Assembly (NCBI GenBank): GCA_963796685.1 | Contig: CAWCMR010000005.1 | Coordinates: 224,001-288,000 of the forward strand | From: an uncultured delta proteobacterium | GTDB lineage: Bacteria; Myxococcota_A; Polyangia; Fen-1088 | Direction of reading: 5' to 3' | DNA: 64,000 nucleotides | Part shown: piece by piece, positions 5,682-40,479 of the stretch | Position numbering within the stretch: position 1 is the first letter of the stretch | Layout of the letters: the number at the start of each line of letters is the position of its first letter | Made by a program: the position numbers and the translations under genes | The notes under the pieces: generated by a model | Seen by the model: the letters and a program-made list of their open reading frames with translations, nothing else | What the model was told of the DNA's origin: nothing | Databases searched by the model: none

Positions 5682-5748
5682 GGTATTTATGCAAGCGCTA
5701 ATTTCACCATCTGGGCCTGGTCCCGAAATTCGGCCTTACGATCTGCGC

Positions 5749-6114
5749 ATGCCACAGAGAGCCCCGAAAACCCGACCAGCCGAGGGCGCACGCCTGGCCG
5801 ACCTACGTCGCGCCGCCGGCCTCACCCAAGTCGAGTTCGCCAAGCTCGTCGGCGAGACCCAGCAAAACATCACCTTCTGGGAGCACAGCGATAAGCCACC
5901 GCGCTCCGACGTCCTGCCCAAGATGGCCAAGGTCCTCGGCTGCTCCGTCGAGCAGTTCCTCGGCATCTCACCGCTCGCAGATCGCCGCCCTGGCCCCGTT
6001 GGGAAGACCCAACGGGCGTTCGAGGAGGTCGCACGTCTCCCGCGCTCTCAGCAGGACAAGATCGTCGAGATCGTAGAGGCCCTCGTCGACCAGTATCGGC
6101 GCAAGGCTAGTTGA
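5749..6114 (+). CDS. XRE-family HTH transcriptional regulator
   Basis: LADLRRAAGLTQVEFAKLVGETQQNITFWE HTH_3 signature; divergent from the primase; ATG 5749 chosen over the longer ORF start. Confidence 0.88.
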   Translation: MPQRAPKTRPAEGARLADLRRAAGLTQVEFAKLVGETQQNITFWEHSDKPPRSDVLPKMAKVLGCSVEQFLGISPLADRRPGPVGKTQRAFEEVARLPRSQQDKIVEIVEALVDQYRRKAS

Positions 6115-6154
6115 GCCTCGACCAGAGTTTTGTAGGATTCAAGAGTATCGACGA

Positions 6155-6979: not shown

Positions 6980-7002
6980 AGCCCTGCGCTAGTTGTACTG
7001 TC

Positions 7003-7287
7003 TCACTTGTGATTCATCGCCCGCCGAATTGCCGATCCTGCCGTGAGGACAAGTCCGGGCAACGACCCGAAATCCAAAAGCAACGGTAAGTACCAAATCC
7101 CATTCACCATCCCAAGCGGCGTTACGAAGCACGCTGCAACACCGAAGAGGCCTCCGAAGAGGGGTATCCAGGATCTATGGTGGTTTCGATGTCGAAGGTT
7201 ATCGATCACAAACCAAGCATTTCCACCTGCAATGGCCGCGAACGCGGCCAGCAGAATCGCGGCTGTGACCCAACGAATAACCAGCAA
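7003..7287 (-). CDS. Small multi-TM membrane protein, probable immunity protein of the upstream Rhs toxin
   Basis: 94 aa with about three hydrophobic segments; starts 8 bp after the Rhs stop on the same strand; low GC like the Rhs tip. Confidence 0.65.
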   Translation of the reverse strand: MLVIRWVTAAILLAAFAAIAGGNAWFVIDNLRHRNHHRSWIPLFGGLFGVAACFVTPLGMVNGIWYLPLLLDFGSLPGLVLTAGSAIRRAMNHK

Positions 7288-7295
7288 ACCAATCC

Positions 7296-17636: not shown

Positions 17637-17684
17637 AGCTCATCCTCTCCGTCCGCGACCACATTGGGTTACAATCCTTGCCTC

Positions 17685-19067
<1,383 letters not shown>

Positions 19068-19094: not shown

Positions 19095-22000
19095 TCAGCC
19101 ATGCGCCGTGTGCTGGCGGGCGAGCTCGAGGATGCGGCGATGTTCGGGGATGCGGGTGAGAAAGGACTCGCGCATGGCAGGGTCGTCGATGGTTTGGGCG
19201 CGGGCGTGGAGCCATTGCGCGGCGGCGGTCACCGCTGCTTGCGCGGCTGGCTGGTCCCCGGTGGCGATCAGGCACTCGGCGAGCTCCAAGCGAATGGTGG
19301 CCTCGCCGTCGTCTACAAAGCCGAGACGATCGAGCTGAGCATGTGCCTCGCGAGCGTTGGGGAGCGCTTCGTCCAGGCGACCTTGGGCAACAAGGGCGCG
19401 AGCCAGAAGGGCGAGCGCGAAGGGACGGGCGGAGGGCACTGGATCCCACGTCGTCATGGCCGCGCGAGCGAATTGCTCGGCACGTGGGTAGTCGCCCGCC
19501 AGGAACTCGGTTACCGAGAGATACGCCTCGGCAAACCCCTGAAATCGTCGATCGTTTTGAGCGCTGGTCACGGCTACAGCCTGCTCGCCAACTGCGCGTG
19601 CCTCGTCAAGCGATCCCTCGTACGCCAGGATGTTCGTCAAGGCCTGAAGACAACCTCCAAGCAGGTGCTTCATGTCCATCCTCTTGGCGGTGTTCAAGAC
19701 TTGACGCATGCGCGACTCGGCCTCTTCCAGTAGGCCGAGCTCGATGAGCGTCACTCCCAGGCTTCCAAGTGATTGGCACGCATCTCGTCGAACGCCTAAG
19801 CTCTCGAAGTGATCCGCGACGCGTCTCTGAAGTGCCACTGTCTCAGCAAGATTGCCTCTACCACGCAAGCCAAACACTCTCGATTGCATTGCTTTGCCAA
19901 CAAGGCGTGGCTCCAAGCATTCTCGTGATTCTTCCAGAAGGGCAAGGGTTCGCTCGCGCACGTCGTTGTCGCCACCAAGCGCGAGGTAAGCCGTGCCAAT
20001 CACCACGCACGTAAGCCAGGCATTCAGCAACTCAGGCTCCGCCGGTCGTTCGAGGCCCCGGAATAGCGCCGCAATCTCCTCATACTTGGCCTGCGGCCCA
20101 AGCGCATCGAAAAGCGCGCTCAGCGCACGCAATCGAATCCGGGCGTCGCTGGAAAGGAGTGCCTGCCGGCCGGCCAACTCTGCCTCTCTGTACTCGCCTC
20201 GCCAATAGTGCGCCTCCGCCTCGATCACACGCATCGCGCACAAATCCTCGCCCTCCGCGCCGAGACCCGCGGCCCGCTCGACGCGCGCAATGGCCTCCAC
20301 CAAGTCATCCGCATCGAGCGCCTGCTGCGCGGCCACGGCCAGCCAGTGAATGGCCCGCGCCTTTTCTTCCGCGCGCTCGAAGTGGTCGGCCAGCACGATG
20401 CCGTCGCGCTCTCCCGCCTGCTCCAGATACTGGCCAGCAAGCAGGTGGCCCAAACGCTCTTCCTCGGCCGGTAGCATCTCGTAGGCCGCTTGGCGCAGAA
20501 GCGCGTGGCGGAATGCATACTCGCGCAGCTCGCCGGTCGACCGCGAAAAGAGGATCTCCTGCTTTTCAAGGATGTCCAGCCAGCGGTCCACGTCCTTGCG
20601 CACGTTCCCGTCGACCAGGGCCTTGACCCCCGCGGGCCGAAAGACCTGGCCAAAGACGCTACCCGCGCGCAACACCAGCTTGGCGTCCGGGCCGAAGCCG
20701 TCGAAGCGCGCCTGCACCATGGCCAGCACGGTGTCGGGCAAGTTGCTGTCGTCGCCTACCGTGCCCCCGTCGGCCACCGCGCGCAGCAATTCCTGCAGAT
20801 AGAAAGGATTCCCTTGCGCGCGTTCCACGATCCAGCGCGCGCTCGGCTCGGAAAGGTCGGCCGCCACGTGCTCGACCATGCGCTGGCTCCAGCGCGGCGA
20901 GAGGGGCGCCAGCTTGATGTGCTGCGAGTTGCGCTCGCTCCACAAGCCGGGAAAGCGCCGTTCGACCTGGGGGCGCGCAAGCGCCAGGACCATCAGTGGT
21001 TTCTCGGCCAGCACGCGCAAGGCCGCGTCCACGAGGCTCACGCTGGGCGCGTCGCCCCAGTGCAAGTCTTCCAGCACGAGTAGCACGGGATGCTGGCTGC
21101 ACACCGCCTCGATCCATTCCAGCCAGGCCATGAGCTTCTGGTCGGCCATCAGGCGCGCGTCTTTGCGGGCCGCGCGCAAGGGCAGAAGATCGTCGTCGGG
21201 GAAGGGCAAATTGGCTAGCTCGCCAAGAAACGCCACCGTCGCCGCCGTGCGCGGGCCATCCTCTTCGGGCAGAAAGCGCGCGATATGGGCGGTCAGGAGC
21301 CTCCGCTGCTCGGCCTCGGGCTCGCCGCCGGCGATCCCGGAAGCCGCCAGCAAGGCCGGACCCAACAGCGCGAACGGCGCGCTGGCGCGCATGGGATCGC
21401 CGCGGCCGACCAGAAGCTCGAAGGGGCGGCCTCGGCCTTGGATGCGCTCGCGGAATTCATGGCAAACCCGCGATTTGCCGCCGCCCGCTGGCGCCGTCAT
21501 CAGCATCACGCGCGCCGCCGGCTCCTCGCACGTCTCGATCCACAGGGTTTCCAAGAGGTCAATCTCGCGCGCGCGGCCGAAGCAGGGCATCTCTTGCCCC
21601 ATGAGGGTCCGTGGCACTTCGGGAAGTCCCTTCTCGAACAGCAAACGCGAGGCTTCGTCCGACAGCGGCTGGAGCTCGAAACGGCTTTCAATCAGGCGGG
21701 CGGTGGGGCCATCGACGTGGATCGTCCCGACCGGGGTATTGGCCAACAAACCAGCCGCCTTGACGGTGGCTTGCTGCAACGAGAGCGTGCCCCCGGACTC
21801 GGTGCGGCTGGAGCTCATGCCCAGGCTGGACTCGGGAAAGACACTATTCAGGCGCAGCGCCAGACGCGCGGCTTGCGCGCTCTGGTCCGCGGGGATGCGC
21901 AGCCCCGTGAAGGCGACGGCCGTCAGCCCATCGGCCGTGTGCTCGGCCCGCGCACCGTAGGCGGCCAGCAAGTCCCGTAGCGCCGCTTCGCGCGTCTTAC

Positions 22001-22939
22001 CGTGATCGTCTCCCAACGCTTGCGAGAGCCCGGAAATGACCAGCACCGCGGCCACACGCTGTTCGCTCGCCGAGAGCGTCCGGCTTTGCCGCGGGGACGG
22101 CAGGTCCAATCCCGCCGCCGCCAAACCCTCGGCCACCGCGGCCAGCTCGTCGGAGAGCTTTCCGGCGTCGTCCGGCCGCTGTTCGGGTTCCAGTGCCAGC
22201 ATGGGCTCCAGCAAAGCCCGCAAAGTCTGCGGCAACGCCGAATACAGCTCGGCCAGCTCTGCATCGTCCCAGGTGTCCGTCTTGCTGCCCTGGTTTCCGT
22301 GCCAGCGGGGCGGCTTGCCGGTCGCACATTCGACCAGCACACAACCCAGGGAAAAGATGTCCGCGCGCCGGTCGACCGCGTCTCCGTCGCGTGCCTGCTC
22401 GGGCGCCATGTACAGCGGCGTACCGATCGCAGTACCCGGCCGGGTCACTTGCCAATCGTCGTGCGCCCCGCGAGCAATGCCGAAGTCGAGCACCTTGACT
22501 TGGTCGAGCTCGGCCGCGGGCAAGAATAGATTGGACGGCTTGATGTCGCGGTGGACGATACCGCGCGCGTGCGCCGCAGCCAGCGCCTGCAGGACGCGGC
22601 TGCCCAGTCGAGCCGCAGCCGTGGGACCGACCGCCCCGCGCGCCAGTCGATCGGCCAGGGTCTCGCCATCCAGCCACTCCATGGCCAGGTAGGGCTCGCC
22701 CTGTGCGGTGGCCCCGTGGGCCACGTAGCGCACGATGGCCGGGTGCGCGAGCGCGGCCAGGGCTTCTGCTTCGCGCAGGAAGCGCTCGGTGGCCAGGGAT
22801 CCCTGGCGGTGCAGCACCTTCAGCGCCACCGGCTGGCCGTCCACCCGATCGCGGGCGCGGAACACCATCCCATACCTCCGCTGCCCACCAGCGCCTCGAC
22901 CTCGAAGCGCTCGCCGAAACGCCTCTGCTCGCTTGCCAC
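19095..22939 (-). CDS. Ser/Thr kinase - degenerate cyclase-like - STAND ATPase - TPR protein with a 1-nt frameshift near 22870 (pseudogene or sequencing error)
   Basis: GGAGGAG RBS, GTG...RFEVEALVGSGGMG in one frame continues as MVFRARD in another (ATG GG ATG); HRDIKPSN, DFG, APE; APAGGGKSR Walker A; LVLEDLHWGD Walker B; C-terminal helical repeats. Confidence 0.85.
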
Positions 22940-23142
22940 GCACACAGGCTCCTCCCGGGTCTCGTTCAGGCCTTCATCCTTCACGGTGCCTGAACGGAAG
23001 ATACACGAAAAGGCGTTCAAGTGATGGGCATCACGCTAGACGAGCGATAGCCGCAGAAGGTCGCGGCCGTGGGGCGAAAGTTTTGCAACGTCTTGCGGAA
23101 CGGTCTTGACCAATCCGCATTGTGTTGCAGAATGGTCAGGTC

Positions 23143-24264: not shown

Positions 24265-24300
24265 AAAGTACCCTCGGAGAGGAACTCCGCAACCTTTCCA

Positions 24301-24328
24301 TTGACACTGGACAGTGTTTGACTATCGT
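24301..24328 (+). promoter_or_regulatory. Sigma70-like promoter with an overlapping palindrome (ACACTG-GA-CAGTGT)
   Basis: TTGACA at 24301, TATCGT at 24323, palindrome 24304-24317 between the boxes; ATG at 24340. Confidence 0.5.
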
Positions 24329-24339
24329 ATCCACTGCCA

Positions 24340-25617
24340 ATGGAAAGACGCTTGCTCAAGGAAATCCTGCTCGACCAGCGAGCGGTCTTCGACCAGAAGC
24401 GCTCGGGAACGCGCCGGGATGTCCTTCCCGAGGTGGGGCGCCACATGGGAAAGCCTCACGCCATCACCCTGACTGGGGTCCGGCGCTGTGGCAAGTCGAC
24501 CTTGTTGCGCCAGGTCGCGGAGCAGTTCCTCTCATCCGGGTACCACTACTGCCACTTCGAAGACGAGCGACTTCTCGGTTTCGAGGCCCGGGACTTCGGG
24601 CTTTTGCATGAGGTCCTCATCGAGTGCTTCGGCGAGCAGAGGGTGATGTTGCTGGACGAGGTTCAGAATGCCCCGGGGTGGGAGACCTTCGTGCGCCGCA
24701 TGCTCGAGTCGGGGCGCAAGTTCATCATCACCGGTTCCAACGCCGCGCTCCTCTCCCGCGAGCTGGGCAGCAAGCTGACCGGTCGCCATGTCACGGTCGA
24801 CCTCTTTCCATTCTCTTTCCGCGAGTACCTGCGGCACTTGGGCGTGGATGCAAACGAAGAAATGCTGCTGCAGCCCGCTGGCCGCGCCACTCTCGCGCGC
24901 CATCTGACGACGTACCGGCTGCACGGCGGGTTTCCGGAGCCGCTGATCTACGATTCTCCCGACCTTCTCACGCAACTCTACGACGACATCCTTTACCGCG
25001 ACGTAGCCACCCGTCACGACATCAAGAACACCCGCGCCCTGCGCGAGCTGGCCCTCTACTACATGAGCAACGTGGCCACGCTGGCGTCGTTCAACAAGCT
25101 GAAGGCCTCGCTGGGTTTGGGAAGCGTCACCACGGTGTCGGCGTATACGGATTTCTTGGTGCAGGCTTTCGTTCTGGCCACGGTGCCGGTGCACGATGCT
25201 TCGGTGAAGCGACGGTCGATCGCTGCCAAGAAGGTGTATGCGGTGGATACCGGGCTGGCCAACCGGGTTTCGCTCAGCTTCTCGCACAACCTGGGCGCGC
25301 TCACCGAGAACATGGTCTTCCTGGAGCTGCTCCGGCGCGGCGCCGACGTGTCGTACTACCGGACTGCGAGCGGCCGCGAGGTCGACTTCGCATGCCGGCG
25401 CGGCCGGGCTTTGTCCAAGCTCGTCCAGGTGACCCTGTCGCTTGCCGACCCGCAGGTCCGCACGCGCGAGGTGGCCGCCATGACCGAGGCACTGGAGGAG
25501 CAGGAGCTCGACGTCGGGCTGGTGCTCACCGAGAGCGATCGTGAGGACATCGTCGTGGGCAAGCGGACGATCCAGGTACGCCCGCTGGCTGGTTGGCTCT
25601 GCGACCTCGACCGCTGA
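24340..25617 (+). CDS. Second AAA_14/DUF4143 ATPase
   Basis: GVRRCGKST, LLDEVQN, ITGSNA, GGFPE, KVYAVDTG, ENMVF, EVDF motifs. Confidence 0.9.
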   Translation: MERRLLKEILLDQRAVFDQKRSGTRRDVLPEVGRHMGKPHAITLTGVRRCGKSTLLRQVAEQFLSSGYHYCHFEDERLLGFEARDFGLLHEVLIECFGEQRVMLLDEVQNAPGWETFVRRMLESGRKFIITGSNAALLSRELGSKLTGRHVTVDLFPFSFREYLRHLGVDANEEMLLQPAGRATLARHLTTYRLHGGFPEPLIYDSPDLLTQLYDDILYRDVATRHDIKNTRALRELALYYMSNVATLASFNKLKASLGLGSVTTVSAYTDFLVQAFVLATVPVHDASVKRRSIAAKKVYAVDTGLANRVSLSFSHNLGALTENMVFLELLRRGADVSYYRTASGREVDFACRRGRALSKLVQVTLSLADPQVRTREVAAMTEALEEQELDVGLVLTESDREDIVVGKRTIQVRPLAGWLCDLDR

Positions 25618-25960
25618 GACAAGCCGGTTAACGCTCCGCTCAGCCTCCAGGAGCGGAGCACGAAGCCCCTAGAAGACCAGGGCATTTCAGACTGTGGGCG
25701 AGGCGAGCGGCCCAAGCGCGGGCGTCACCGTCGTCCAAGATCACGGTTGCATCCGGCAAGGTCAGGGCCAAGTCGAGCGCGCCACTTTCACCAACGCCAA
25801 GTTCGGAGTAGTCGTGTTCAACGACAGCCCTCCGGATTTCGATCCAGGGCTGGCGAAGGTCCGGAACCTCGTGCCCCCTCACACGGCCTTGGGCAAGCTC
25901 CTGCTCTACCTGGAAGGGGACGACGATTTTGCCAAACAGAAGCGGCAGCAGCTCAAGACG

Positions 25961-26006
25961 GCGCAGCAGGTGCAAGTAGATCAGCGCAGCAGGTGCAAGT
26001 AGATCA
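25961..26006 (+). repeat. 23-bp perfect tandem duplication GCGCAGCAGGTGCAAGTAGATCA, ending a gene remnant (about 25694-26002)
   Basis: Two adjacent copies at 25961-25983 and 25984-26006; the second shifts the frame to a stop. Confidence 0.8.
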
Positions 26007-26029
26007 GCGGCGACGTATTCGAGACGGTC

Positions 26030-26293
26030 TCAGGCACGGGTGGACCGCAACGCCGCGAGCTCGTGGGCCAGCTCTTCCGGGCTTTCTTGGAAGGCGTTGA
26101 CGCCGAACTCCCCCAACCTATATAGGAACTCGACCCTGGTAATGCCAGCCAGGGCTGCCGCAGCGCCGGACGACAACTGCCCCAGCTCGTGTAGCTTCAT
26201 GGCCGCCGCAAGGCGCTCCCTGCCCTCTGCCTCGGATGGTGAAGGCCCCAGCGCCCGAAGGGTTACCTCTGGTAGCTCGATGGAAAGGGTCAC
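26030..26293 (-). CDS. UPF0175-family protein (antitoxin-like HTH), orphan
   Basis: LAAAMKLHELGQLSSGAAAALAGITRVEFLYRL signature; no PIN partner downstream. Confidence 0.8.
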   Translation of the reverse strand: MTLSIELPEVTLRALGPSPSEAEGRERLAAAMKLHELGQLSSGAAAALAGITRVEFLYRLGEFGVNAFQESPEELAHELAALRSTRA

Positions 26294-26319
26294 AAGTCCA
26301 AGTGTACCAGGTGGATTCT

Positions 26320-26820
26320 CACTCGGTGGGCTGTTTCAAGGCGGCCTCGCCCTTCGATGCGGCGAAGCACGGCCAAGACTTCGGGCGGGGTAATTTCCGC
26401 GATGGGGCGCGAGCCAATCCAGGGATAGGCGTCCTTCTCAAGCCGGCCCTTCACGCCCCTGGCGTGGGATGGTGCCCAAGTGCTCTCGAACTTCGCCAGC
26501 CACTCCTTGGCGATGGCCTCGAGGGTGTTAGTTAGCCCTGCGGTGGCTCGGGAGGCCCTCAGCGCCTGCCTGTGCGCGCTTGGGTCGATGCCATCGCGAA
26601 GAAGCTTGCGTGGCTCGTCTCGCTTCTCGCGGGCCGCGGCCAGTGTGATTTCTGGGTATGTACCAAGGGACAGCAGCTTTTCCTTCTTGGCGATGCGGTA
26701 CTTGAGCCTCCACCACTTGCCGCCGGCTGGGGCGATTTCCAAGTACATCCCGCCTATGTCGTAGAGGCGCTTCCGCTTCCCCGTGGGCTTGGCTTTCTTG
26801 CAAGCTGTCTCGGTCAGCAT
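26320..26820 (-). pseudogene. Truncated P4-like integrase (arm-binding and core-binding domains only)
   Basis: MLTETACKKAKP...LYDIGGMYLEI...KWWRLKYR...LSLGTYPEITLAAAR; ends at ETAHRV with no catalytic domain; downstream of a tRNA. Confidence 0.88.
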
Positions 26821-27023
26821 TGGGGGTAACTCCCAGGCCCGCTTCTTCGACGGTGTGGCTTTCTTGTGCGTGGTGGGGGTAACTCCCAAGTCAGCCTCCC
26901 CGACGGTGCGGCTTTCATAAGAGCGATGGCCGCCAGCATTTGGGGGTAATTCATGGGATCCGAACCTCTTGCTTGGGGGTAACTGGTTTTCGATCCAGCG
27001 AGTTACCCCCAGGGTTACCCCCA
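26821..27023. repeat. Six TGGGGGTAA(C/T) motifs, probable integrase arm-type binding sites
   Basis: Direct copies at 26821, 26874, 26941, 26974; inverted copies at 27002 and 27014; all lie between the tRNA 3' end and the integrase start. Confidence 0.8.
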
Positions 27024-27139
27024 CGCTCTGGAGGCTGTCAACGAACGCAGGCGGACGCTTGCGGAGCCAAAATGCCCCTAAGTCGTTGAATTCTCTAGCG
27101 GCGGCGAACCTGTGCGGACGGCGGCGGAACCTCAGTTTG

Positions 27140-27213: not shown

Positions 27214-27282
27214 GGAACCCACGATTCATAGCCCGCGCCTCGCGCCAGCGCAAGCTCGCCCCGATCCCGCTGTAACCGCAAA

Positions 27283-27359
27283 GGTCGTGGTCGCGGTCGT
27301 GGTCGTGGCCCTGGCCCTGGTCGTGGTCGTGGTCGTGGCCGTGGCCGTGGCCGTGGCCG
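27283..27359. repeat. G(T/C)CGTG hexamer tandem array (about 13 units)
   Basis: GGTCGTGGTCGCGGTCGTGGTCGTGGCCCTGG...GCCGTGGCCGTGGCCG; same unit as around 16941-17636. Confidence 0.8.
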
Positions 27360-27783
27360 ATTCATCCTCGGCCACGGACGAGCAAGAAAAATCCTTGCCA
27401 GAGCAAGAAGCCACATCCTTCGCCGCGCTGGCGCATTGCATTTTCCAGGGTGGCAATGCGATGTGCCGCCATGCGTGTGCATGTACGGAACGCTCAGCCA
27501 TGTGGGTGTCACTTTTTTGACGATCAGAAGAGCGAAGCCAATTAACTGATTGAAAAGATTAGGCCGTCAATTCTATGACCATTAGCCAGTGTGTTGACGA
27601 TAACGCGGATCATGACAATTGCGCGCAACGGACGCGGCCGAAATTCATTGATGAAACTGCGCAACAACCCAAACAACCGTCAATACCATGTCCAATAGTC
27701 ACACAATTGACTTGTGTTCGGCATAATTGAGTGTTCTAATGAAGTCAGCCCATTCAATTGGCACCCAACCAAGGAGAAGGACC

Positions 27784-27852
27784 ATGAAGAAAAAGGCAGG
27801 ACTCAAGGTGAAGACCAAGGTTCGCAGCGGCGGGGGTCTCTGGCCCAGGTAA
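27784..27852 (+). CDS. 22-aa peptide MKKKAGLKVKTKVRSGGGLWPR (basic leader + GG + short core); candidate signalling/RiPP-like precursor
   Basis: AAGGAGAAGG RBS just before ATG, AT-rich upstream region, downstream hairpin; below the ORF-track length cutoff. Confidence 0.7.
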   Translation: MKKKAGLKVKTKVRSGGGLWPR

Positions 27853-27877
27853 TTCACCGCTCGTCATACGTGTTGAT

Positions 27878-27913
27878 CGAGGACGCCGTCCCTAGGAAGG
27901 GCGGCGTTTCTCG
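27878..27913. terminator. GC-rich hairpin between the convergent peptide and kinase genes
   Basis: CGAGGACGCCGTCC-CTAGGAA-GGGCGGCGTTTCTCG forms an about 14-bp stem with one bulge and G-U pairs. Confidence 0.65.
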
Positions 27914-27946
27914 TCTTGCGTCTGTGCGGCAACCTGCGCTGCACGA

Positions 27947-30900
27947 CTATTGGGTCAATTCTTCGGCGTCGGCAATCCCCAATTCCAGTGCCAGCTTGAC
28001 AATGCGGTAATGCTCTGGAATGCGAGTTAAGAAAGAGCGGCGCCAATCCTCATTGTCAATAGTATTGGCTCGTTTTCGAAGCCATTCCACAGCCTTCTGC
28101 AATTTCTCCTTTGCCGGCTGCAGTTCCGACGAGGACACAAGGCATTCCACTATGGCAAGTCTGATGGTTGCCTCGCCGTCCGGAACGTTTCCGAGAATAT
28201 GAAGCTGCGAATCGGCTTCGCGCGCTAGCGGATAGGCCTCCGTGGTCAAGCCTTGTCCGAGCAGCGCCCGAGCAAGCAGAGCAAGGGCAAAAGGCCGAAG
28301 AGACAGATCGGAATCGAGGATCTCCAGGGCCGTCCGTGCGTGCTGTGCGGCGCGCGAATAGTTGCCTGCCAAGTACTCAATTACGGACAAGTAGAGTTGT
28401 GCGTATCGTCGGAAGTACTGGTCATTTGTCTCAGTGGTCAATTTTACTGCGTTCTCTCCGAAAGCGCGCGCATCGTCCAGACAACCACGATATGCGAGTG
28501 CGTTCGAAAGAATGTAGAGCGTTCCCCCTATGAGGTGGACCAGCCCCATCCTTTCCGCAATGCCCCACAGTTTCCTTATCTGCACTTCCGCCTCTTCCAG
28601 TCGGCCAAGCTCCATTAGTGTACCGCCGCTATTTCCCAGAGCCTCTGTGCTTGCCCGATGATGGCCAGCTTGGTCGAAGCACTCCCATGCGCGTCGAAAT
28701 CGAGCAACCGATTCTGCCGGTTTGCCATCGGCCCTTGCTATGTGAGCCCTCAGGCTTTCGGCCCGACCGATGAGAATCGGATCCAGCTTTCCCTGTTCCG
28801 CTTCAAGCAATGAAAGAGTGCGTTCTCTTGCTGCATGTTGACCAACGCTTGCAAGATATGCTGCGAGGTTTACCCTGCAATCGAGCCAAGCGTTCAGCAA
28901 CTCAGGCTCCATCGGTCTAGTCTCGATATCTAACGCAAGTTGATCGAACTCCTCGTACTTCGCTTGCGGCCCCAATCCCATAATGAGCGCGCTCGTTGCG
29001 CGCAGTGCAAGCTTCGCATCCTCGCACTTCCTCCCCTCCCTCGCAGCGCGCTCCGCCTCCACGTATTCCCCTTTCCAATAGCGCGCCTCCGACTCCACGA
29101 TCCGCAGCTCCGCCAGATCGTCGCCCTGCGCCCCCAGGCGCACGCCGCGCTCCACGCGGTCGAGGGCCGCCTTCAGGTCGTCCACCTCCATGGCTTGGTT
29201 GGCGGCCACGCGCAGCCAGGGCACGGCGCGCTCGGGCTTCTGGCCTTTCTCGAAGTGGTCGGCCAGCACGATGGCGTCGCGCTCGCCCTGCTCTTCCAGG
29301 AAATCGCCGGCCAGGTAGTGCCCGTTCACTTCCTCTTTGGGCGACAGCATGGCATAGGCGGCCTGGTGCAAGAGGGCGTGGCGAAAGACGTGCTGGCGGG
29401 TCGCGCCGACCGGGCGCGAGAACAGGATTTCCTTGCTCACCAGGATCTCGAGCCAGCGATCGACATCCTCGTCGGCCAGGTCGTCGACCAGGGCCTTGAC
29501 CCCGGCGGCGCTGAAGCTTTGGCCGAAGACGCTCGCCGCGCGCAGCACCAGCTTCGACCCCTCGCCCACGGCATCGAAACGGACCTGCACGGTGCCGAGC
29601 ACGGTGTCCGGGATCTGCGACAGCTCGCCGCCCGCGGCCGCCGCGCGCACCAGTTCTTCGAGGTAGAAGGGGTTGCCCTGGGCGTGGTCGAGCAGCCAAT
29701 CCATCTTCTCGGGTGCCACGTCGCCCAGCACGCGCCGCACGAGCTCCTGCTCGGCCCGCTTGCCGAGAGGCGGCAGGGAGATGCGCTGCACGTGCCGATC
29801 GCGCCACAGACCGTAGAAGCGCTCGTCGACCTCGGACCGCGCCAGGGCCAGCACCATCAGGGGCTTGTCGCGCAACACGCGCAGGGCCGAATCGATGTAG
29901 TTCACGCTGGCGAAGTCGCCCCAGTGCAAATCCTCGAGCAGCAGGAACACGGGGTGGTGCCCGGCCTCGGCTTCCAGCCAGTCGACCCAGGCCGCCATGG
30001 TCTGGTCCGCCATCAGACGCGCGTCCCGCCGCGCGGCCTGCAACTGCGGCAGCTCGTCGTCGGGAAAGTGGATGTTGGTGATCTCGCCCAGGAAGGCCGC
30101 CGTGGTGGCGGCGCTCTTGGCCGGCAAGAAGCGGGAGGTGTGCGCTTGTAGGCGTTTGCGCTGAACCTCGTCGGGCTCGGTGCCGGTGATGCCCGCGGCG
30201 CCGCGCAGGGCCTGGCCCACCAGCCCCAGCGAGACGTTGATCCGCATGGGATCGCCGCGCCCGATGAGCAGCTCGAAGCCGTGGCCGCTGTCGCGCTTGC
30301 GTTCGAGGAACTCGTAGACCACGCGCGACTTGCCGCAGCCCGCGGAGCCGCTGAGCACCACGGCCTGGGCCTGGGGCTCTTCCACGCAAGCCTCGAACAG
30401 GCTGTCCAGCTCCCTGATTTCGCGGTCGCGCCCGATGCACGGGATCTCTTTTCCTAAGACGGTGCGCGGGGCCTCGCGCAGCCCCTTCTCGAACAGCAGG
30501 CGCGCCCGGCCATCCGGCTCGACCACGATCTCGAATCGGGCGTCGAGCAGGCGTTTCATCTCCTCGCTGATGTGAATCGAGCCGAGGTGCTGCTTGCTCA
30601 CCAGGTGCACGGCGCTGTCGACCAGATGCTCGGTGCGCAGCTCGTCTTCCTTGATGGCGTGGCCCAGGCTGATGCCCAGCGACGAATCCGGTCGCGCGAC
30701 CTTGACCTTGAGCGCGCAGCGCGCGGAGCGCACCGCCAGATCGAGCGGCGTGGACTGCGCCTCGCCGGTCATGCTGACCACCAACCCGCCGTTGGCCAGG
30801 CGGCGAATGTGCGCGCCGAAGGCGGCGATGTCGGCGGCCAGGCGATCCAGCCGTGCCTCGTCGAATTCGGCGTCCGAGAGACGGCGCGCGAGCAGGTTTC

Positions 30901-31918
30901 CGAGGTCCGCCGTCGAGCCCAGGTCGAGGTGAGGCTGCTGGGTCCCCATCGTGCGCGACGACACCACGATGACCGCAACCAGCCGACGCTCGCCCGTGGC
31001 CACCAGCAACGAGGCACCCGCGGGCGCGCGGCGCTCCTTGGGGGCCAGGGGAAAGAACCCCGTGGTCTTCAGCTCCACGGTGACGTTGCCGAGCTCGCCC
31101 AGGACGTCGAGCATGGTCGAGGGGCGATCGCCGGGCCGCTTGGCCAGCATGCGGCGAAGCAGGTCGGTCAGACGCGGCGGCACGCCCACGCACCTCGCCT
31201 CTACATCCACGGTCTCGTCGGCGGTGATTCTGGCCAGGGTCCCGGTGGTGCTATCGGCCATGAACGGCGGGGTGCCGGTCAGGCACTCGAAGAAGACGCA
31301 GCCGAGAGAGAACACGTCGGCGCGCGCGTCGACATCCAGCGATCCCTGGGCCTGCTCGGGCGACATGTACATGGGCGTCCCCAGGGCCGAGCCCGCCTGG
31401 GTCAGGCGCAGCGAGGCCGGGTCGAACAGGCGACGCGCGATGCCGAAATCGAGCAGCTTGATCTTGGAAACGTCCTTGGCGGGCAGGAAGATGTTGGCGG
31501 GCTTGATGTCGCGATGGATGACCCCGTGCTGGTGGGCCACGGCCAGGGCCTCCGCGACCCGGCGGATCATACGCACCGTGGCGCCCAGGTTGATGGAACC
31601 GCGGGCCAGCCGATCCTCGAGGGTCTCGCCGTCGAGCCACTCCATGACCAGGTAGTGCTCGCCGTGGTTGGTCTTGCCGTGCGCGATATAGCGCACGATG
31701 GCCGGATGGGCGATGGCCGCCAGGCAGTTCGCCTCTTGCTGAAACCGCTCGCCAAGCTGGGACCCGAACCCGGACGAGATCTTCACCGCCACGGTTTCGC
31801 CGCTGGACAGATCGACCCCACGGTAGACCATGCCCATGCCGCCGGCGACACGATCCCCTTGCAGGCGAAACCGACCGTCGATCTCTCGGGGTATGTCGTC
31901 CGATGGCAGCACGGTCAT
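27947..31918 (-). CDS. Ser/Thr kinase - degenerate cyclase-like - STAND ATPase - TPR protein (intact)
   Basis: GGMGMVY, VAVKI, HRDIKPAN, DFG, SPE; GSAGCGKSR Walker A; LLLEDLHWGD; GNPFYLEE; TPR-like C-terminus; paralog of 19095-22939. Confidence 0.92.
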   Translation of the reverse strand: MTVLPSDDIPREIDGRFRLQGDRVAGGMGMVYRGVDLSSGETVAVKISSGFGSQLGERFQQEANCLAAIAHPAIVRYIAHGKTNHGEHYLVMEWLDGETLEDRLARGSINLGATVRMIRRVAEALAVAHQHGVIHRDIKPANIFLPAKDVSKIKLLDFGIARRLFDPASLRLTQAGSALGTPMYMSPEQAQGSLDVDARADVFSLGCVFFECLTGTPPFMADSTTGTLARITADETVDVEARCVGVPPRLTDLLRRMLAKRPGDRPSTMLDVLGELGNVTVELKTTGFFPLAPKERRAPAGASLLVATGERRLVAVIVVSSRTMGTQQPHLDLGSTADLGNLLARRLSDAEFDEARLDRLAADIAAFGAHIRRLANGGLVVSMTGEAQSTPLDLAVRSARCALKVKVARPDSSLGISLGHAIKEDELRTEHLVDSAVHLVSKQHLGSIHISEEMKRLLDARFEIVVEPDGRARLLFEKGLREAPRTVLGKEIPCIGRDREIRELDSLFEACVEEPQAQAVVLSGSAGCGKSRVVYEFLERKRDSGHGFELLIGRGDPMRINVSLGLVGQALRGAAGITGTEPDEVQRKRLQAHTSRFLPAKSAATTAAFLGEITNIHFPDDELPQLQAARRDARLMADQTMAAWVDWLEAEAGHHPVFLLLEDLHWGDFASVNYIDSALRVLRDKPLMVLALARSEVDERFYGLWRDRHVQRISLPPLGKRAEQELVRRVLGDVAPEKMDWLLDHAQGNPFYLEELVRAAAAGGELSQIPDTVLGTVQVRFDAVGEGSKLVLRAASVFGQSFSAAGVKALVDDLADEDVDRWLEILVSKEILFSRPVGATRQHVFRHALLHQAAYAMLSPKEEVNGHYLAGDFLEEQGERDAIVLADHFEKGQKPERAVPWLRVAANQAMEVDDLKAALDRVERGVRLGAQGDDLAELRIVESEARYWKGEYVEAERAAREGRKCEDAKLALRATSALIMGLGPQAKYEEFDQLALDIETRPMEPELLNAWLDCRVNLAAYLASVGQHAARERTLSLLEAEQGKLDPILIGRAESLRAHIARADGKPAESVARFRRAWECFDQAGHHRASTEALGNSGGTLMELGRLEEAEVQIRKLWGIAERMGLVHLIGGTLYILSNALAYRGCLDDARAFGENAVKLTTETNDQYFRRYAQLYLSVIEYLAGNYSRAAQHARTALEILDSDLSLRPFALALLARALLGQGLTTEAYPLAREADSQLHILGNVPDGEATIRLAIVECLVSSSELQPAKEKLQKAVEWLRKRANTIDNEDWRRSFLTRIPEHYRIVKLALELGIADAEELTQ

Positions 31919-32143
31919 CTCGGGGTCAGTCTAGAAACGAGTCCATCCAGGGGAGTTTATCCCCGATGTCGCTTTCTGCGAACATCCTGGCTCGTCGCAG
32001 TGGCCCAAGGGGCCTCCAACGGCGCAGACGAAGTGTTTTCGTGCTCGCGTTCCGGCGTCGGAAATCGTGATTTTGCGCCCACGCGGCACGGCCTTTCTCT
32101 TCCGGCGGTTATTGCCGCGCGTTGTCCAAGCTCTTTGGCTTCG

Positions 32144-34664: not shown

Positions 34665-35615
34665 TCACGGCTTTCGCTTTTTTCGAAAGATCGGCGGCTT
34701 GAGCTTCGCGCCTCCCGGGGGCACGACGGGCGGCCAGGGCGGGGGCTCGGTGGTAGCATCGAGATAGGCGGCTTCTTCGTCTGGGATCTTCCCGTCCTTG
34801 TAGCGGTCGTCTTCCCAGAAGAGCGTCCAGGTCGTGGGCTCGCTAGCGTATTCGTAGGTCGTGTACGGCTCCTGCGGATCGATCTCGCTTTCGACTTTGG
34901 AGTAGTCGAGTCGCTTTCCCGCACGTTTGCCCTCCCACGCGTCGTTGCCTTCCCAAAGGTAGTTCGGCGCCCCGCTCGGCAAGGCCGGCATCCAGATTCC
35001 GGAGACGGGCACGCGCTGGCCAGTCTTGATCGATATCCCTCTGGGTTTCGGCGCCGGGGCGATGCTCGCAATCGGCGGGAACAGGACGTCGCTGGCACGT
35101 GCTCTATCGTCGTTGGGACGCGCCGCATCGGGAAATGCCCACAATCCACGCAGGGTCTTGTCCACATACGCACACATGTTTGCGGCGACCACAGCCCAAG
35201 CGTAAATCCCTTCGGGCGGGTTCGGATAAAACTGCCAACCGATGTCCTGGTGCTCCAGCCCAAAGTCAACTTGGCGGCCAAGGATCCAGTCGCGAAAAAA
35301 ACAGCCATCATAGATTTCGGCGTAGCCACGGCTGTCGCGGTGCCGGAGCTTCTCGATGCCATCGGTGAAGGCGGCCTCGTAGCCATGGAAGCTCGCGAGG
35401 TTGCTTCGATGGGCGGCCACGCGATCCGTTGATGGGGTTCGCTGCGAGAATTCCTCGTATCCGGCTACGAAGTTCGCGAACAGGGCTACCATTCGCTGGA
35501 TATACGTCAGCGACGAAAAGCGCTTCGCCAGCCAGATGGCACGGACGAGATCGTCGGCGGTGACCGGAATCTCCTTGCCTGTGAGCTTCGTAACTTTGGG
35601 CGCATACTTCGACAT
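34665..35615 (-). CDS. Imm71/Imm72-like immunity protein
   Basis: WLAKRFSSLTY N-terminal block; KTGQRVPVSGIW.P...GAPNYL and W.DDRYKDG.IPDEE C-terminal block; coupled to the toxin stop. Confidence 0.75.
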   Translation of the reverse strand: MSKYAPKVTKLTGKEIPVTADDLVRAIWLAKRFSSLTYIQRMVALFANFVAGYEEFSQRTPSTDRVAAHRSNLASFHGYEAAFTDGIEKLRHRDSRGYAEIYDGCFFRDWILGRQVDFGLEHQDIGWQFYPNPPEGIYAWAVVAANMCAYVDKTLRGLWAFPDAARPNDDRARASDVLFPPIASIAPAPKPRGISIKTGQRVPVSGIWMPALPSGAPNYLWEGNDAWEGKRAGKRLDYSKVESEIDPQEPYTTYEYASEPTTWTLFWEDDRYKDGKIPDEEAAYLDATTEPPPWPPVVPPGGAKLKPPIFRKKRKP

Positions 35616-38185: not shown

Positions 38186-39070
38186 ATGTTTCGAATCCTG
38201 AAATCCGATTGGCTCGCTCCCAAGGTCCGCCGGCTGGAGGTCGAAGCGCCGCGTGTCGCGGCTCGGCACCGACCGGGTCACTTCGTCATCGTCCGCGCCT
38301 ACGAGGGCGGCGAGCGCATTCCGCTGACCATCGCCGACAGCGACAAGAAACGGGGAACCATTTCGCTGGTCATCCAGGTCATCGGCGCGACCACCGAGCG
38401 CTTGTGCTCGCTCGCCGAGGGCGACGCGCTGACCGACGTGGTGGGCCCGCTCGGCAAGGCCACGGAAATCGAGCACTTCGGCCATGTCGTCCTTGTAGGC
38501 GGCGGCGTGGGTACGGCGGTCATCTACCCGCAGGCCTCGGCGCTGAAAGCCAAGGGCAACCGCGTAACCGCGGTCATGGGCGGTCGTTCGAAGCCCTACG
38601 TGATTCTGGAAGAAGAGCTCAAGGCCCATTGCGATGCGGTCTACCCCTGCACCGACGACGGCAGCTATGGTTACAACGGCTTCGTCACGGGCAAGCTGGC
38701 CGAGCTGATCGCGGATCCGGCGCTGCCGGTGAACGCGGTCATTACCGCGGGCCCGGTGCCCATGATGAAGGCCATCGCCAACGTCACGCGCGAGAGGAAG
38801 ATCCTGACCATCGCGTCGCTGAACCCCATCATGGTCGACGGCACGGGCATGTGCGGCGGCTGCCGCGTCACCGTGGGCGGCAAGAACCTGTTCGCCTGCG
38901 TCGACGGCCCGGAATTCAACGCCCACGAAGTGGACTTCGCCTCGCTGACCGATCGATTGTCGGCCTACAAGGATCACGAGCGCAGCATCTGGGCCCGTCT
39001 CAAGACCGACGAAGAGCATCAGTGCAAGCTGCAAGCGGCCATGGCCGAGGCCAACGGAGATTTGCCATGA
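38186..39070 (+). CDS. nfnA: Electron-bifurcating transhydrogenase small subunit (NfnA/SudB, PyrK-like)
   Basis: ERIPLTIAD, GPLG, VGGGVG, MVDGTGMCGGCRV...CVDGPEF 2Fe-2S motif. Confidence 0.9.
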   Translation: MFRILKSDWLAPKVRRLEVEAPRVAARHRPGHFVIVRAYEGGERIPLTIADSDKKRGTISLVIQVIGATTERLCSLAEGDALTDVVGPLGKATEIEHFGHVVLVGGGVGTAVIYPQASALKAKGNRVTAVMGGRSKPYVILEEELKAHCDAVYPCTDDGSYGYNGFVTGKLAELIADPALPVNAVITAGPVPMMKAIANVTRERKILTIASLNPIMVDGTGMCGGCRVTVGGKNLFACVDGPEFNAHEVDFASLTDRLSAYKDHERSIWARLKTDEEHQCKLQAAMAEANGDLP

Positions 39071-40479
39071 AGCCATCCGAACGAATGAAGATCCAGCGCC
39101 AAGCCATGCCCGAGTCGCCCGCCGACGAGCGCTCGCACCACTTTCGCGAGGTGAATCTGGGCCTGCCGCCCGAGGTGGCCTCGCTGGAGGCCAAGCGCTG
39201 CCTGGCCTGCAAGAACCACGAGTGCGTGGCGGGCTGTCCGGTGGGCATCGACATTCCGGGCTTCATCGCCGCGGTCGACGCGGGCGATCTCGAGCGCGCG
39301 GCGAACGTGCTTTACGCCGCCAACGTTCTACCCGGCATCACCGGCCGCGTGTGCCCGCAGGAAACCCAGTGCGAAGAGCTGTGCCTGGTGGGCAAGAAGG
39401 GCAAGCCGGTCGCCATCGGCTACCTCGAGCGCTACGTGGCGGACTGGGCGCGCACCAACCTCAAGCGCACCATCCAGCTTGCGCCGGCCACGGGCAAGAA
39501 GGTCGCGGTGGTGGGCAGCGGCCCGGCCGGGCTGACCTGCGCGGGCGAGCTGGCCAAGCTTGGCCACGACGTGACGGTGTTCGAGGCATTGCACCGGCCG
39601 GGCGGCGTCCTGGTCTACGGCATTCCCGAGTTCCGCCTGCCCAAGGTCATCGTCGATCAGGAAGTGAAAACGCTGCAGGACATGGGCGTGAAGATCGAGT
39701 GCAACGTGGTCGTCGGCGCAACGATGACCCTCGACGACCTGATGAAAGAGGAAGGCTTCCACGCCGTGTTCGTGGGCAACGGCGCCGGCCTGCCCGTGTT
39801 CCAGAACATCCCCGGCGAAAACCTCAAGGGCGTGTACTCGGCCAACGAGTACCTCACGCGCGTGAACCTAATGCGCGCGTACATGGGCATGGAGGCCGAT
39901 ACGCCGGTCCTGCGCGGCAACGCCGTCGTCGTCGTGGGCGGCGGCAACACCGCCATGGACGGCGTGCGCACCGCGCGCCGCCTGGGCGCCGAGCCCGCGT
40001 GCCTGGTCTACCGCCGCTCCGAAAAGGAAATGCCCGCGCGCGTGGAGGAGGTCCACCACGCCAAGGAAGAGGGCGTGCGCTTCGAGATGCTGACCAACCC
40101 CATCGCGGTCTTGGGCGACGAGGCCGGCTGGGTGCGCGCCGTGCGCTGCCAGCGCATGGGCCTGGGCGAGCCGGATGCCTCGGGCCGCCGCCGTCCCGTG
40201 CCCATCGAGGGCAGCGAATTCGATATCCCGTGCCAGGTGTTCATCGAGGCGGTCGGCACCAAGTCGAACCCGCTGCTCACCCAGGCCACGCCGGATCTCA
40301 AGCTCAACAAATGGGGCAACATCGTCGTCGACGAGAACGGCATGACCAGCATTCCCGGCGTGTTCGCCGGCGGCGACATCGTGCGCGGCGGCGCCACCGT
40401 CATCCTGGCCATGGGCGACGGCAAGAAAGCCGCGGCCGGCATCCACGGCTACCTGAGCAAGCCCGGGGCGACGGCGTAG
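39067..40479 (+). CDS. nfnB: Electron-bifurcating transhydrogenase large subunit (NfnB/SudA, GltD-like)
   Basis: RCLACK...CVAGCPV, GRVCPQETQCE, GSGPAG, GGGNTAMD, FAGGDIVRG; ATGA overlap with nfnA. Confidence 0.9.
   Translation: MKPSERMKIQRQAMPESPADERSHHFREVNLGLPPEVASLEAKRCLACKNHECVAGCPVGIDIPGFIAAVDAGDLERAANVLYAANVLPGITGRVCPQETQCEELCLVGKKGKPVAIGYLERYVADWARTNLKRTIQLAPATGKKVAVVGSGPAGLTCAGELAKLGHDVTVFEALHRPGGVLVYGIPEFRLPKVIVDQEVKTLQDMGVKIECNVVVGATMTLDDLMKEEGFHAVFVGNGAGLPVFQNIPGENLKGVYSANEYLTRVNLMRAYMGMEADTPVLRGNAVVVVGGGNTAMDGVRTARRLGAEPACLVYRRSEKEMPARVEEVHHAKEEGVRFEMLTNPIAVLGDEAGWVRAVRCQRMGLGEPDASGRRRPVPIEGSEFDIPCQVFIEAVGTKSNPLLTQATPDLKLNKWGNIVVDENGMTSIPGVFAGGDIVRGGATVILAMGDGKKAAAGIHGYLSKPGATA

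Follow-up and report, generated by a model that had tools for sequence, protein, structure and literature searches.

A 22-amino-acid peptide gene convergent with a kinase-STAND-TPR gene in uncultured Myxococcales: a candidate ligand and receptor in one hypervariable cassette

We analysed a stretch of 64,000 nucleotides (nt) from an uncultured delta proteobacterium (contig CAWCMR010000005.1, positions 224,001 to 288,000; the whole stretch is called the window), in which a 22-amino-acid open reading frame (ORF) and the gene for a 1323-amino-acid kinase protein, P0001, converge on a 94-nt gap (Table 1). The source genome (G000) comprises 7.3 Mb in 26 contigs with a GC content of 64.6%. Its closest relative, G002, served as the reference for DNA identity profiles; the genus of the window is referred to as g1 and a second genus of the same family as g32, and receptor residues are numbered as in P0001. 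The contig titles of these relatives name uncultured Myxococcales or "delta proteobacterium" metagenome-assembled genomes from fen and soil samples, and part of the region 27400-29400 is also present in four soil-metagenome DNA runs from one study; a look-up of the same region found no RNA run.

Table 1. Features of the peptide-kinase locus, in window coordinates
Feature	Position	Strand	Remarks
Weaker upstream copy of the dual dyad operator (GTCA-N6-TGAC type)	27565..27601	+	113 nt upstream of the main site in G000
Dual dyad operator cGTCA-N6-TGaCg-N3-cGTCA-N6-TGACTTG	27678..27714	+	overlaps a TTGACT box; candidate promoter and regulator site
Ribosome-binding site AAGGAG	27771..27776	+	7 nt before the ATG; read directly
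22-amino-acid peptide gene	27784..27852	+	ATG 27784, TAA 27852; encodes MKKKAGLKVKTKVRSGGGLWPR
Hypervariable lower-GC cassette	27830..29040		takes in peptide codons ~17-22, the terminator and the 3′ end of the kinase gene, which encodes the TPRs; from identity, dS and GC3
Hairpin between the convergent genes	27868..27921		probable bidirectional terminator; from the fold of 27853-27946 and stem conservation
Convergent kinase gene	27947-31918	-	1323 amino acids
TPR sensor domain, residues ~960-1323	27950..29041	-	Pfam TPR_12/TPR_MalT at 1052-1237; predicted peptide-binding groove
STAND NTPase module, residues ~494-940	29099..30439	-	AAA_16; Foldseek Apaf-1, 6mfv, MalT, Avs3
Cyclase-homology-like domain, residues ~310-480	30479..30991	-	partial TIGR03903 match; Foldseek Rv1625c
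Hanks-type Ser/Thr kinase domain, residues 26-268	31115..31843	-	Pkinase 7.9e-45, 153.7 bits

A preliminary description of this DNA had drawn attention to the short ORF, a strong ribosome-binding site, an AT-rich upstream region and a hairpin shared with the convergent gene, and each was found where it had been placed. The AT-rich region before the ORF extends over about 260 nt, with a GC content of 0.45-0.49 across 27530-27829 against 0.646 for the genome. The ORF is single-copy in its own genome, and its product is basic and hydrophilic throughout, lacking a hydrophobic core or signal peptide. It matches no family in Pfam, NCBIfam or PADLOC. The intergenic gap (27853-27946) folds with a free energy of -40.2 kcal/mol (z -2.4), and a stem of the form ACGCCGyC...GrCGGCGTTT recurs in 17 of 18 homologous genome loci; a simple terminator scan does not list this hairpin.

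Searching first with DNA and then with a profile, we found the peptide gene in 7 of 13 g1 genomes, one of which (G010) holds two copies, and in 10 of 11 g32 genomes, giving 18 copies in 17 species genomes from two Myxococcales genera; the eleventh g32 copy is cut by a contig end. A class-wide sample of 401 genomes has the peptide in 14, all from 2 of the 162 genera sampled. When one genome per species (185,579 species) was scanned with a degenerate pattern, 17 matches came back, 15 of which are these same Myxococcales genomes; the other two, in Stahlbacteria and Streptomyces, were discarded as chance matches inside longer frames. The same kind of scan on metagenome contigs gave 49 stretches, 40 of which hold 41 peptide ORFs, the remaining nine having none. 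Together, the 59 ORFs encode 42 distinct peptides of 21-23 residues with a conserved basic part, M-KK-x-x-G-[LI]-KV-[KR]-[TS]-[KR]-VR-[SG]-G, and a variable tail, x-x-x-[W/F/Y]-P-x, ending at the stop codon. Only the aromatic-Pro-x-stop pattern is constant in this tail, with proline at position -2 in all 42 distinct peptides and W, F or Y at -3 in 39.

The pattern of substitution identifies this ORF as a real, conserved coding gene, far beyond what chance would produce, because third codon positions vary, serine codons switch family, and the ribosome-binding site, length and stop are kept. Across codons 6-16 of the 18 genome copies, all 11 third positions vary, compared with 4 first and 3 second positions. 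Codon 11 is found as both AGC and TCN for serine, and codon 12 as AAG and CGA for lysine or arginine. The GGAG core of the ribosome-binding site keeps the same spacing to the ATG in 18/18 genome loci, and the start, length and stop position persist even though the last codons differ almost everywhere. The possibility that the ORF is untranslated and the conserved DNA is a regulatory or small-RNA element of the kinase 3′ region draws on the strong nucleotide-level conservation of codons 12-16, but is contradicted by the third-position variation, the serine and lysine/arginine codon-family switches and the fixed frame beside a hypervariable 3′ end, and we give it almost no credence.

The peptide gene also has a private regulatory region. 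The dual dyad overlapping its candidate promoter can be aligned in all 18 genome loci of the two genera, and an operator matrix built from these 18 promoters was scanned against the 7.3-Mb genome. The main site scores 52.6 and its upstream copy 20.5/21.4 on the two strands, with the next unrelated genomic match at 20.3. Besides the main site, the upstream copy is thus the top match genome-wide, and no strong copy occurs elsewhere in the genome. A candidate sigma-54 promoter (TGGCAC, 27760-27765) was rejected, as it has no -12 element, overlaps the ribosome-binding site and is conserved only in the closest relatives.

The neighbour of the peptide is almost always the same. For 17 of the 18 genome copies it is a convergent kinase-STAND-TPR ortholog (50-89% identical), whose 3′ end is 41-118 nt away; beside the eighteenth copy the contig ends after 190 nt. 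Of the peptide ORFs on metagenome contigs, 30 of 41 face a convergent ORF of at least 100 amino acids across a gap of 41-119 nt, and 23 of these reach at least 340 amino acids and align to the C-terminus of P0001, the non-redundant ones shown being 48-67% identical. Four further ORFs have a kinase C-terminus that is farther away, less similar or truncated where the contig stops, two lie on contigs with no room for a kinase, and one is the first of two tandem peptide genes. Presence and absence of peptide and kinase track each other, since the g1 genomes that lack the peptide (G001, G003, G005, G008 and G009) have no kinase ortholog, their best kinase matches being 37-40% identical. In G007 the kinase ortholog ends at base 78 of its contig, a position from which linkage cannot be judged. 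Linkage to the kinase is obligate for the peptide, which is tied to this kinase clade. The converse fails, as several close kinase paralogs, to which we return below, have no peptide.

Several loci depart from the simple one-to-one arrangement. G010:C19 carries two complete peptide-kinase cassettes 15 kb apart (at 194 kb and 209 kb; L012, L024), with the tails GVTPR and GKFPF. On the L186 contig, tandem peptide genes at 4081-4149(+) and 4536-4604(+), with the tails AGRWPR and GIRWPH, precede one convergent kinase, and in G071 (L062) one peptide gene is flanked by two kinase genes. At L150:2621-2689(-) and L147, the peptide lies beside only a remnant, about 90 amino acids long, of the kinase C-terminus, which may represent an orphan peptide or a decaying locus. 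Kinase copies split by frameshifts occur in G010b, G071 and G072. A weak peptide-like stretch, TKVRSRGGRWPT (L069:1829-2002(+), E 0.0013), lies just upstream of the 58% identical kinase paralog on G010:C7 and may be a peptide-gene relic.

The convergent protein combines an enzymatic output with a repeat sensor. Its N-terminal domain is a Hanks-type kinase with intact VAVK, HRDIKPAN and DFG motifs, whose best solved relative is PknB. The AAA_16 match (residues 494-689, 4.6e-16) includes Walker A (GSAGCGKS) and Walker B (LLLEDLHW) motifs, and a structural model of residues 285-960 (predicted local distance difference test, pLDDT, 83) retrieved Apaf-1 (E 2.5e-9), the STAND-TPR protein 6mfv (1.4e-8), MalT (9.1e-8) and also Avs3 in Foldseek. 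This AAA_16/NB-ARC-type P-loop NTPase, with its helical/winged-helix arm fold and the repeat sensor that follows, is that of a STAND protein. The first ~200 residues of the model resemble the catalytic domain of the class III adenylyl cyclase Rv1625c (rank 45, E 1.9e-5, TM 0.62 by target). Because Pfam gives no match for residues 290-490, the label "cyclase-like" is valid at the level of predicted fold only, alongside a sub-threshold match to TIGR03903; a sequence search of the PDB with residues 290-960 returned P-loop noise only. Kinase, STAND and TPR assignments from the preliminary description therefore stand as given, with its cyclase-like domain reduced to a fold-level likeness. No hydrophobic segment of P0001 exceeds threshold, and the receptor is predicted to be cytoplasmic. 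Pfam and NCBIfam assign generic TPR, MalT-like TPR, kinase and AAA_16 families only, with no RRNPP-family profile among them.

Comparison with G002, whose peptide ends in GKWPL, shows a single hypervariable block with sharp edges that takes in both the peptide tail and the TPR sensor. DNA identity is 85-96% across the promoter and peptide codons 1-15 (27430-27829), falls to 50-72% over 27830-29029 and returns to 89-99% over 29030-31929. Protein identity of the kinase is 93-100% as far as residue 960 and 51-71% beyond it. Synonymous divergence (dS) between G000 and G002 is 1.75 in the TPR part and 0.21 in the rest of the kinase, an approximately 8-fold difference, and the two G010 copies show the same behaviour (1.30 versus 0.17). 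The ratio of nonsynonymous to synonymous divergence (dN/dS) within the TPR part is 0.15-0.17, indicating purifying selection. Since faster protein evolution alone would not suffice to raise dS in this way, the jump points to old alleles that were kept or swapped by recombination. The break near 29000 is repeated against five metagenome relatives, and in g1 and g32 alike no part has diverged more than the TPR part (62-71% versus 85-99% among the closer g1 genomes; 63-77% versus 83-90% in g32 without the outlier G070).

Base composition changes at the same boundary. The last 360 kinase codons have a GC content of 0.55 and a third-position GC content (GC3) of 0.56, compared with 0.69 and 0.90 upstream, with the break at about 29040; a similar GC3 fall occurs in 6 of 7 g1 copies, and a smaller one in g32. 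Both the lower GC of the TPR-coding 3′ kilobase and the proposal that peptide and sensor were exchanged as one block had been put forward earlier; the former is borne out, and the identity and dS profiles are consistent with the latter.

We predicted the complex of the last 400 kinase residues (alignment of 16) with the peptide (alignment of 18), using alignments of our own. Three runs scored 0.84, 0.84 and 0.83, against 0.16, 0.00 and 0.08 for controls, and shared at least 65% of contacts. In a calibration on proteins of at least 30 residues, 58 of 80 solved complexes passed the mark set for such scores, as did 2 of 110 mismatched pairs. The predicted interface comprises peptide residues 16-22 only, with the lowest error at W20. 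On the receptor, the predicted contacts (983, 1016-1024, 1052-1063, 1089-1100, 1129-1135, 1168-1172 and 1246-1247) recur at a spacing of about 36 residues along the inner face of the TPR superhelix, all within the hypervariable part. Co-folding, which the preliminary description had named as a check, thus places the tail in the groove as a prediction. Among the contact residues, H1059 and N1096 never vary and R1052 is kept in 15 of 16 sequences, a pattern that in the model would fit recognition of a constant aromatic-Pro-carboxylate; positions 1017, 1024, 1062/1063, 1099/1100, 1135 and 1168 vary.

Covariation between tail and sensor can be seen at individual sites. Among 32 non-redundant pairs, W1017 and F1023 are each confined to the three whose tail ends in glycine (0/29 others), namely G012/L162 in g1 and G067 in g32; P0001 itself has N1017 and A1023. 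Tails ending in K/R go with N or D at residue 1017 in 15 of 20 pairs, against 2 of 12 for the other tails (Fisher p 0.003, without correction for kinship). When the 239 columns are ranked for each of the four variable tail positions tested, a predicted contact column comes first or second for three of them: 1023 for tail position 22, 1172 for 19 and 1132 for 20. Column 1018, beside two contacts, takes first place for position 22. This site-level covariation is suggestive support for the modelled pocket and no proof of it. Covariation of core and TPR, a check named in the preliminary description, is thus seen at the predicted contacts and is not significant over the domain as a whole.

Together, these findings lead us to favour, with moderate confidence, the view that the 22-amino-acid ORF is a micro-gene, translated into the cognate ligand of the TPR sensor in the convergent NLR-like Ser/Thr kinase, the two forming one polymorphic cassette. 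The peptide tail, x-[W/F/Y]-P-x with its free carboxylate, would dock in the concave groove of the C-terminal TPR sensor, as predicted. Conserved residues R1052, H1059, N1096 and E1092 would hold the constant aromatic-Pro-COOH part, and variable pocket residues (e.g. 1017, 1018, 1023 and 1172) would recognise those tail positions that vary. The likeness to MalT, Apaf-1 and Avs proteins leads us to infer that a filled sensor would move the STAND NTPase between a closed and an oligomeric state and thereby control how active the N-terminal Hanks kinase is. Key and lock would thus lie back to back in a cassette of ~1.2 kb whose anciently diverged alleles may have been kept, or exchanged between lineages, in the manner of pherotypes.

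Such a pair could serve as a self/kin or quorum signal or as an internal regulator, and we give roughly even odds to action of the intact peptide within the cell and to a route through export, cleavage and re-import. The double glycine following VRS, which the preliminary description took as a cleavage motif, proved not to be fixed, occurring in 33 of the 42 distinct peptides. Double-glycine leaders and substrates of peptidase-containing ATP-binding cassette (ABC) transporters are characterized by features this peptide does not share: the GG (GG, GA or GS at the cleavage site of such leaders) is not invariant, no GG-leader model in NCBIfam or Pfam matches, and no C39-peptidase ABC exporter is linked to the gene, the nearest of three C39 domains in the genome being ~170 kb away on the same contig. 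Processing to GLWPR or LWPR and signalling outside the cell are accordingly offered as conjecture, given the incomplete conservation of GG and the lack of a signal peptide, a linked exporter or a membrane segment in the receptor.

Several observations weigh against this ligand-receptor reading. The case for translation of the ORF comes from conservation alone. Two of the 41 metagenome ORFs have only a kinase remnant, and two have a divergent rather than convergent kinase. Close kinase paralogs occur without a peptide, at window positions 19095-22943 (51% identical), on G011:C41 (71%), on G004:C11 (68%, frameshifted) and on G010:C7 and G002:C39 (58%), and GC3 is also lower in the TPR part of a peptide-less paralog (0.68 versus 0.83). 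In the predicted complex, the partner has a pLDDT of 46-48, below 50, TPR grooves take peptides readily in structure predictors, and residues 1-15, the most conserved part of the peptide, lie outside the interface. With backbone distance controlled, whole-domain TPR distance shows no significant association with tail distance (partial Mantel over 49 within-genus pairs, partial r 0.27, permutation p 0.24), variability at the predicted contact columns does not exceed that of the other TPR columns (entropy 1.37 versus 1.28, p 0.63), and raw mutual information over 16 pairs was uninformative, being dominated by high-entropy columns. Finally, L171:12312-12380(-), with its kinase at 8236-12207, encodes an identical 22-amino-acid peptide beside a TPR domain only 61% identical, on a backbone with ~80% DNA identity; 17 of its 25 contact sites equal those of the window by our own count.

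The profile search also uncovered a wider family, consisting of proteins with 2-14 tandem units of ~21 residues, GLKVKTxVKAGG-(2-10 variable residues)-NHN[RQ]x. A large protein collection holds 116 of these relatives, all unnamed or "hypothetical", and the few with organism names come from Acidobacteriota, Blastocatellia and one Actinophytocola bin. Pfam, NCBIfam and PADLOC have no family for them, and the ESM Atlas contains only unnamed "hypothetical protein" clusters. Within the class sample, repeat proteins occur in 39 of 401 genomes and 33 of the 71 in the family, including 16/20 in genus g2 and 5/6 in g11 but 0/10 in g1 and 0/7 in g32, so that repeat proteins and the single-unit peptide have complementary distributions. 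At 14 of 24 loci the repeat gene has a Ser/Thr kinase ORF no more than 700 nt away (8 convergent, 3 divergent and 3 co-directional), and all 12 repeat-linked kinases tested have C-terminal TPRs. Eleven of these 12 have one hydrophobic segment just after the kinase domain, so that their TPRs would be extracytoplasmic. The twelfth, in G099 (L110), has no such segment, as is the case for P0001; its gene encodes a P0001-like kinase-AAA_16-TPR protein whose 3′ end is 19 nt from the repeat gene. At L058, repeat genes at 5713-6288(-) and 9200-9724(-) flank a kinase at 6558-9170(+), and further repeat loci are L059, L060 and L105-L124.

The window peptide looks like a one-unit derivative of this repeat family, paired with a soluble, STAND-containing receptor. 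The external TPRs of the relatives and the family-wide conservation of the "leader" argue for export somewhere in the repeat family. A broader proposal, which we regard as possible but doubtful, is that the pair constitutes a polymorphic self-recognition or pherotype system of uncultured soil and fen Myxococcota, with a leaderless peptide ending in [W/F]-P-x as the key and the TPR sensor of an NLR-like, eukaryote-type kinase as the lock, and the minimal member of an unrecognised superfamily of multi-copy precursors and membrane Hanks kinases with extracytoplasmic TPRs in Myxococcota and Acidobacteriota. Such a superfamily, if real, would be a bacterial counterpart of peptide-hormone/receptor-kinase signalling.

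The conservation of the basic segment outside the predicted TPR interface raises the question of whether the peptide might instead be mainly a dedicated phospho-substrate or adaptor, with K-V-[KR]-[TS]-[KR]-V-R-S as an acceptor site for the kinase cleft and the tail-TPR contact recruiting the right substrate to the right paralog. Position 11 carries a hydroxyl residue in all 42 distinct peptides, encoded by three codon types (ACN, AGC and TCN), and 17 of the 18 genome copies have S15; the strictly kept hydroxyl at position 11 allows such a role. The catalytic motifs of the kinase are intact, and in the 11 of 12 relatives with extracytoplasmic TPRs a cytoplasmic repeat protein could meet only the kinase domain. 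The equivalent position is, however, alanine or asparagine throughout some repeat proteins (P0003, P0006 and the L114 repeat protein), and a phospho-acceptor is therefore not a family-wide requirement. The avoidance of paralog cross-talk alone would also leave the saturated dS and the species-level hypervariability of the cassette unexplained. We consider a role mainly as substrate unlikely.

The resemblance of the receptor to immune sensors suggests another function, in which the STAND kinase would be the sensor of an anti-phage or abortive-infection module and the labile peptide a cognate plug that would hold it inactive until infection depletes or displaces the plug, with the hypervariability reflecting an arms race. 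The STAND-TPR architecture is as in Avs sensors, and the Foldseek match to Avs3 fits this idea. PMC13581612 describes ligand binding to the repeat (TPR) sensor of Avs7, and of protein ligands to Avs sensor TPRs, as relieving autoinhibition. Variable islands flank the locus, carrying a truncated integrase, a UPF0175 protein, two DUF4143 ATPases (PADLOC candidate PDC-S01) and Imm72/Imm71. Set against these points, the PADLOC matches of the kinase extend no farther than its generic kinase domain (residues ~10-300), species share the pair in chromosomal synteny and do not carry it on a mobile element, and the private, conserved dual operator on the peptide promoter suggests regulated signalling. 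A defence role strikes us as quite unlikely.

A conserved "leader" joined to a short hypervariable "core", together with multi-core relatives, is also what one would see in the precursor of a peptide made on the ribosome and modified after translation (RiPP). Its modifying enzymes would be encoded elsewhere, and the kinase would be a regulator or bystander, as proposed for the kinase/cyclase fusions of thiazole/oxazole-modified microcin (TOMM) systems. P0001 aligns over residues 54-911 with TIGR03903, the "TOMM system kinase/cyclase fusion protein" model, and the genome contains C39 peptidase domains. The TIGR03903 score of 284.8 bits is far under the cut-off of 705.75, however, and among the 18 neighbour ORFs scanned (16.5-49.9 kb of the window) we found no YcaO, radical-SAM, maturase, TOMM cyclodehydratase or precursor, or exporter gene. 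The kinase is the only gene that travels with the peptide, and the hypervariable block takes in its TPR domain, which would not be expected of a bystander. We judge the RiPP explanation improbable.

The surroundings of the locus differ between close relatives. The peptide-kinase pair is syntenic between G000 and G002, with extra insertions on both flanks in G000. The insertion, from 24268 to 27111 or 27222, contains the truncated integrase, which has arm-binding and central domains only and no match to a catalytic domain, along with the UPF0175 protein and the second DUF4143/AAA_14 ATPase (PADLOC candidate PDC-S01). A simple-sequence stretch follows at 27230-27430, whose frames are runs of PR, T/A or V/A and which aligns poorly to G002 (53-76% identity, with gaps). 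On the other side, synteny stops at 32124 and is followed in G000 by ~6 kb that includes the Imm72/Imm71 immunity-protein gene (34665-35615(-)). This block is absent between the kinase gene and an oxidoreductase gene, a homologue of window 38209-40479, in G004, G010b and G012. The window paralog of the kinase (19095-22943(-)) is convergent with a gene for an FHA and sigma-54 activator protein (17664-19067(+)), and its counterpart in G002 contains stop codons. A 3015-amino-acid ORF occupies 7296-16343(-).

The locus provides a concrete, testable ligand-receptor pair, with a predicted pocket, 38 natural tail variants and sensor sequences for 32 non-redundant pairs, and it leads to a peptide family, unannotated so far, that is associated with TPR kinases in two soil phyla. 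To our knowledge, the ligands of the hundreds of eukaryote-like kinases in myxobacteria are almost all unknown. The preliminary description had ventured that the layout was new, and we likewise found no description of it among Pfam and NCBIfam models, ESM Atlas cluster names or the papers that could be searched.

In its proposed working, the system resembles RRNPP and pherotype systems, yet it departs from both as they are defined. In RRNPP systems such as Rap-Phr of Bacillus, a short ORF lies beside a cytoplasmic TPR receptor with enzymatic output, the active part of the peptide is its C-terminal ~5 residues, and cassettes are polymorphic. The Myxococcota locus likewise has a short ORF adjoining a predicted cytoplasmic TPR receptor with an enzymatic output, a tail predicted to sit in the TPR groove and a polymorphic cassette. 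It differs in its receptor, which joins a Hanks kinase, a cyclase-like region and a STAND NTPase and lacks homology to Rap, NprR, PlcR, PrgX or AimR; in its peptide, which is 22 residues long and has no secretion signal of the kind found in their pro-peptides; in the convergent rather than co-directional orientation of the genes; and in its host, RRNPP systems being found in Firmicutes. We know of peptide signalling through cytoplasmic TPR receptors almost exclusively from Firmicutes and their phages.

In the agr (agrBDC) and comQXP systems, conserved flanks enclose a hypervariable segment that covers both the signal-peptide gene and the sensory portion of the receptor, and key and lock alleles are inherited together. 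The cassette described here has the same layout over the candidate signal gene and the sensor. Whereas those systems use membrane histidine kinases and encode maturation enzymes within the cassette, no maturation gene is present here and the receptor is a soluble STAND Ser/Thr kinase. The multi-repeat proteins share the conserved unit and the position beside a Ser/Thr kinase with C-terminal TPRs, and differ in having tandem units with an internal variable part followed by NHN[RQ], partner kinases that mostly carry a membrane segment, and other host genera. The TIGR03903 family is named for its linkage to ribosomal peptide precursors, with a cyclodehydratase and TOMM precursor in the neighbourhood; its kinase, cyclase-like and NTPase regions can be aligned with P0001, but the score is below the cut-off and TOMM genes were not seen nearby.

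With MalT, Apaf-1, Avs proteins and the PknK protein of M. tuberculosis, all STAND/NLR-like regulators with repeat sensors, P0001 shares the NTPase-helical arm-TPR architecture. The known ligands of these proteins are sugars, cytochrome c and phage proteins. By contrast, we know of no STAND/NLR-like protein that is paired genetically with a micro-peptide encoded against its 3′ end and diversifying along with it. Should the alleles turn out to be specific, the locus would represent a new principle of kin or strain discrimination in social bacteria and a natural NLR-like protein with a genetically encoded, private ligand.

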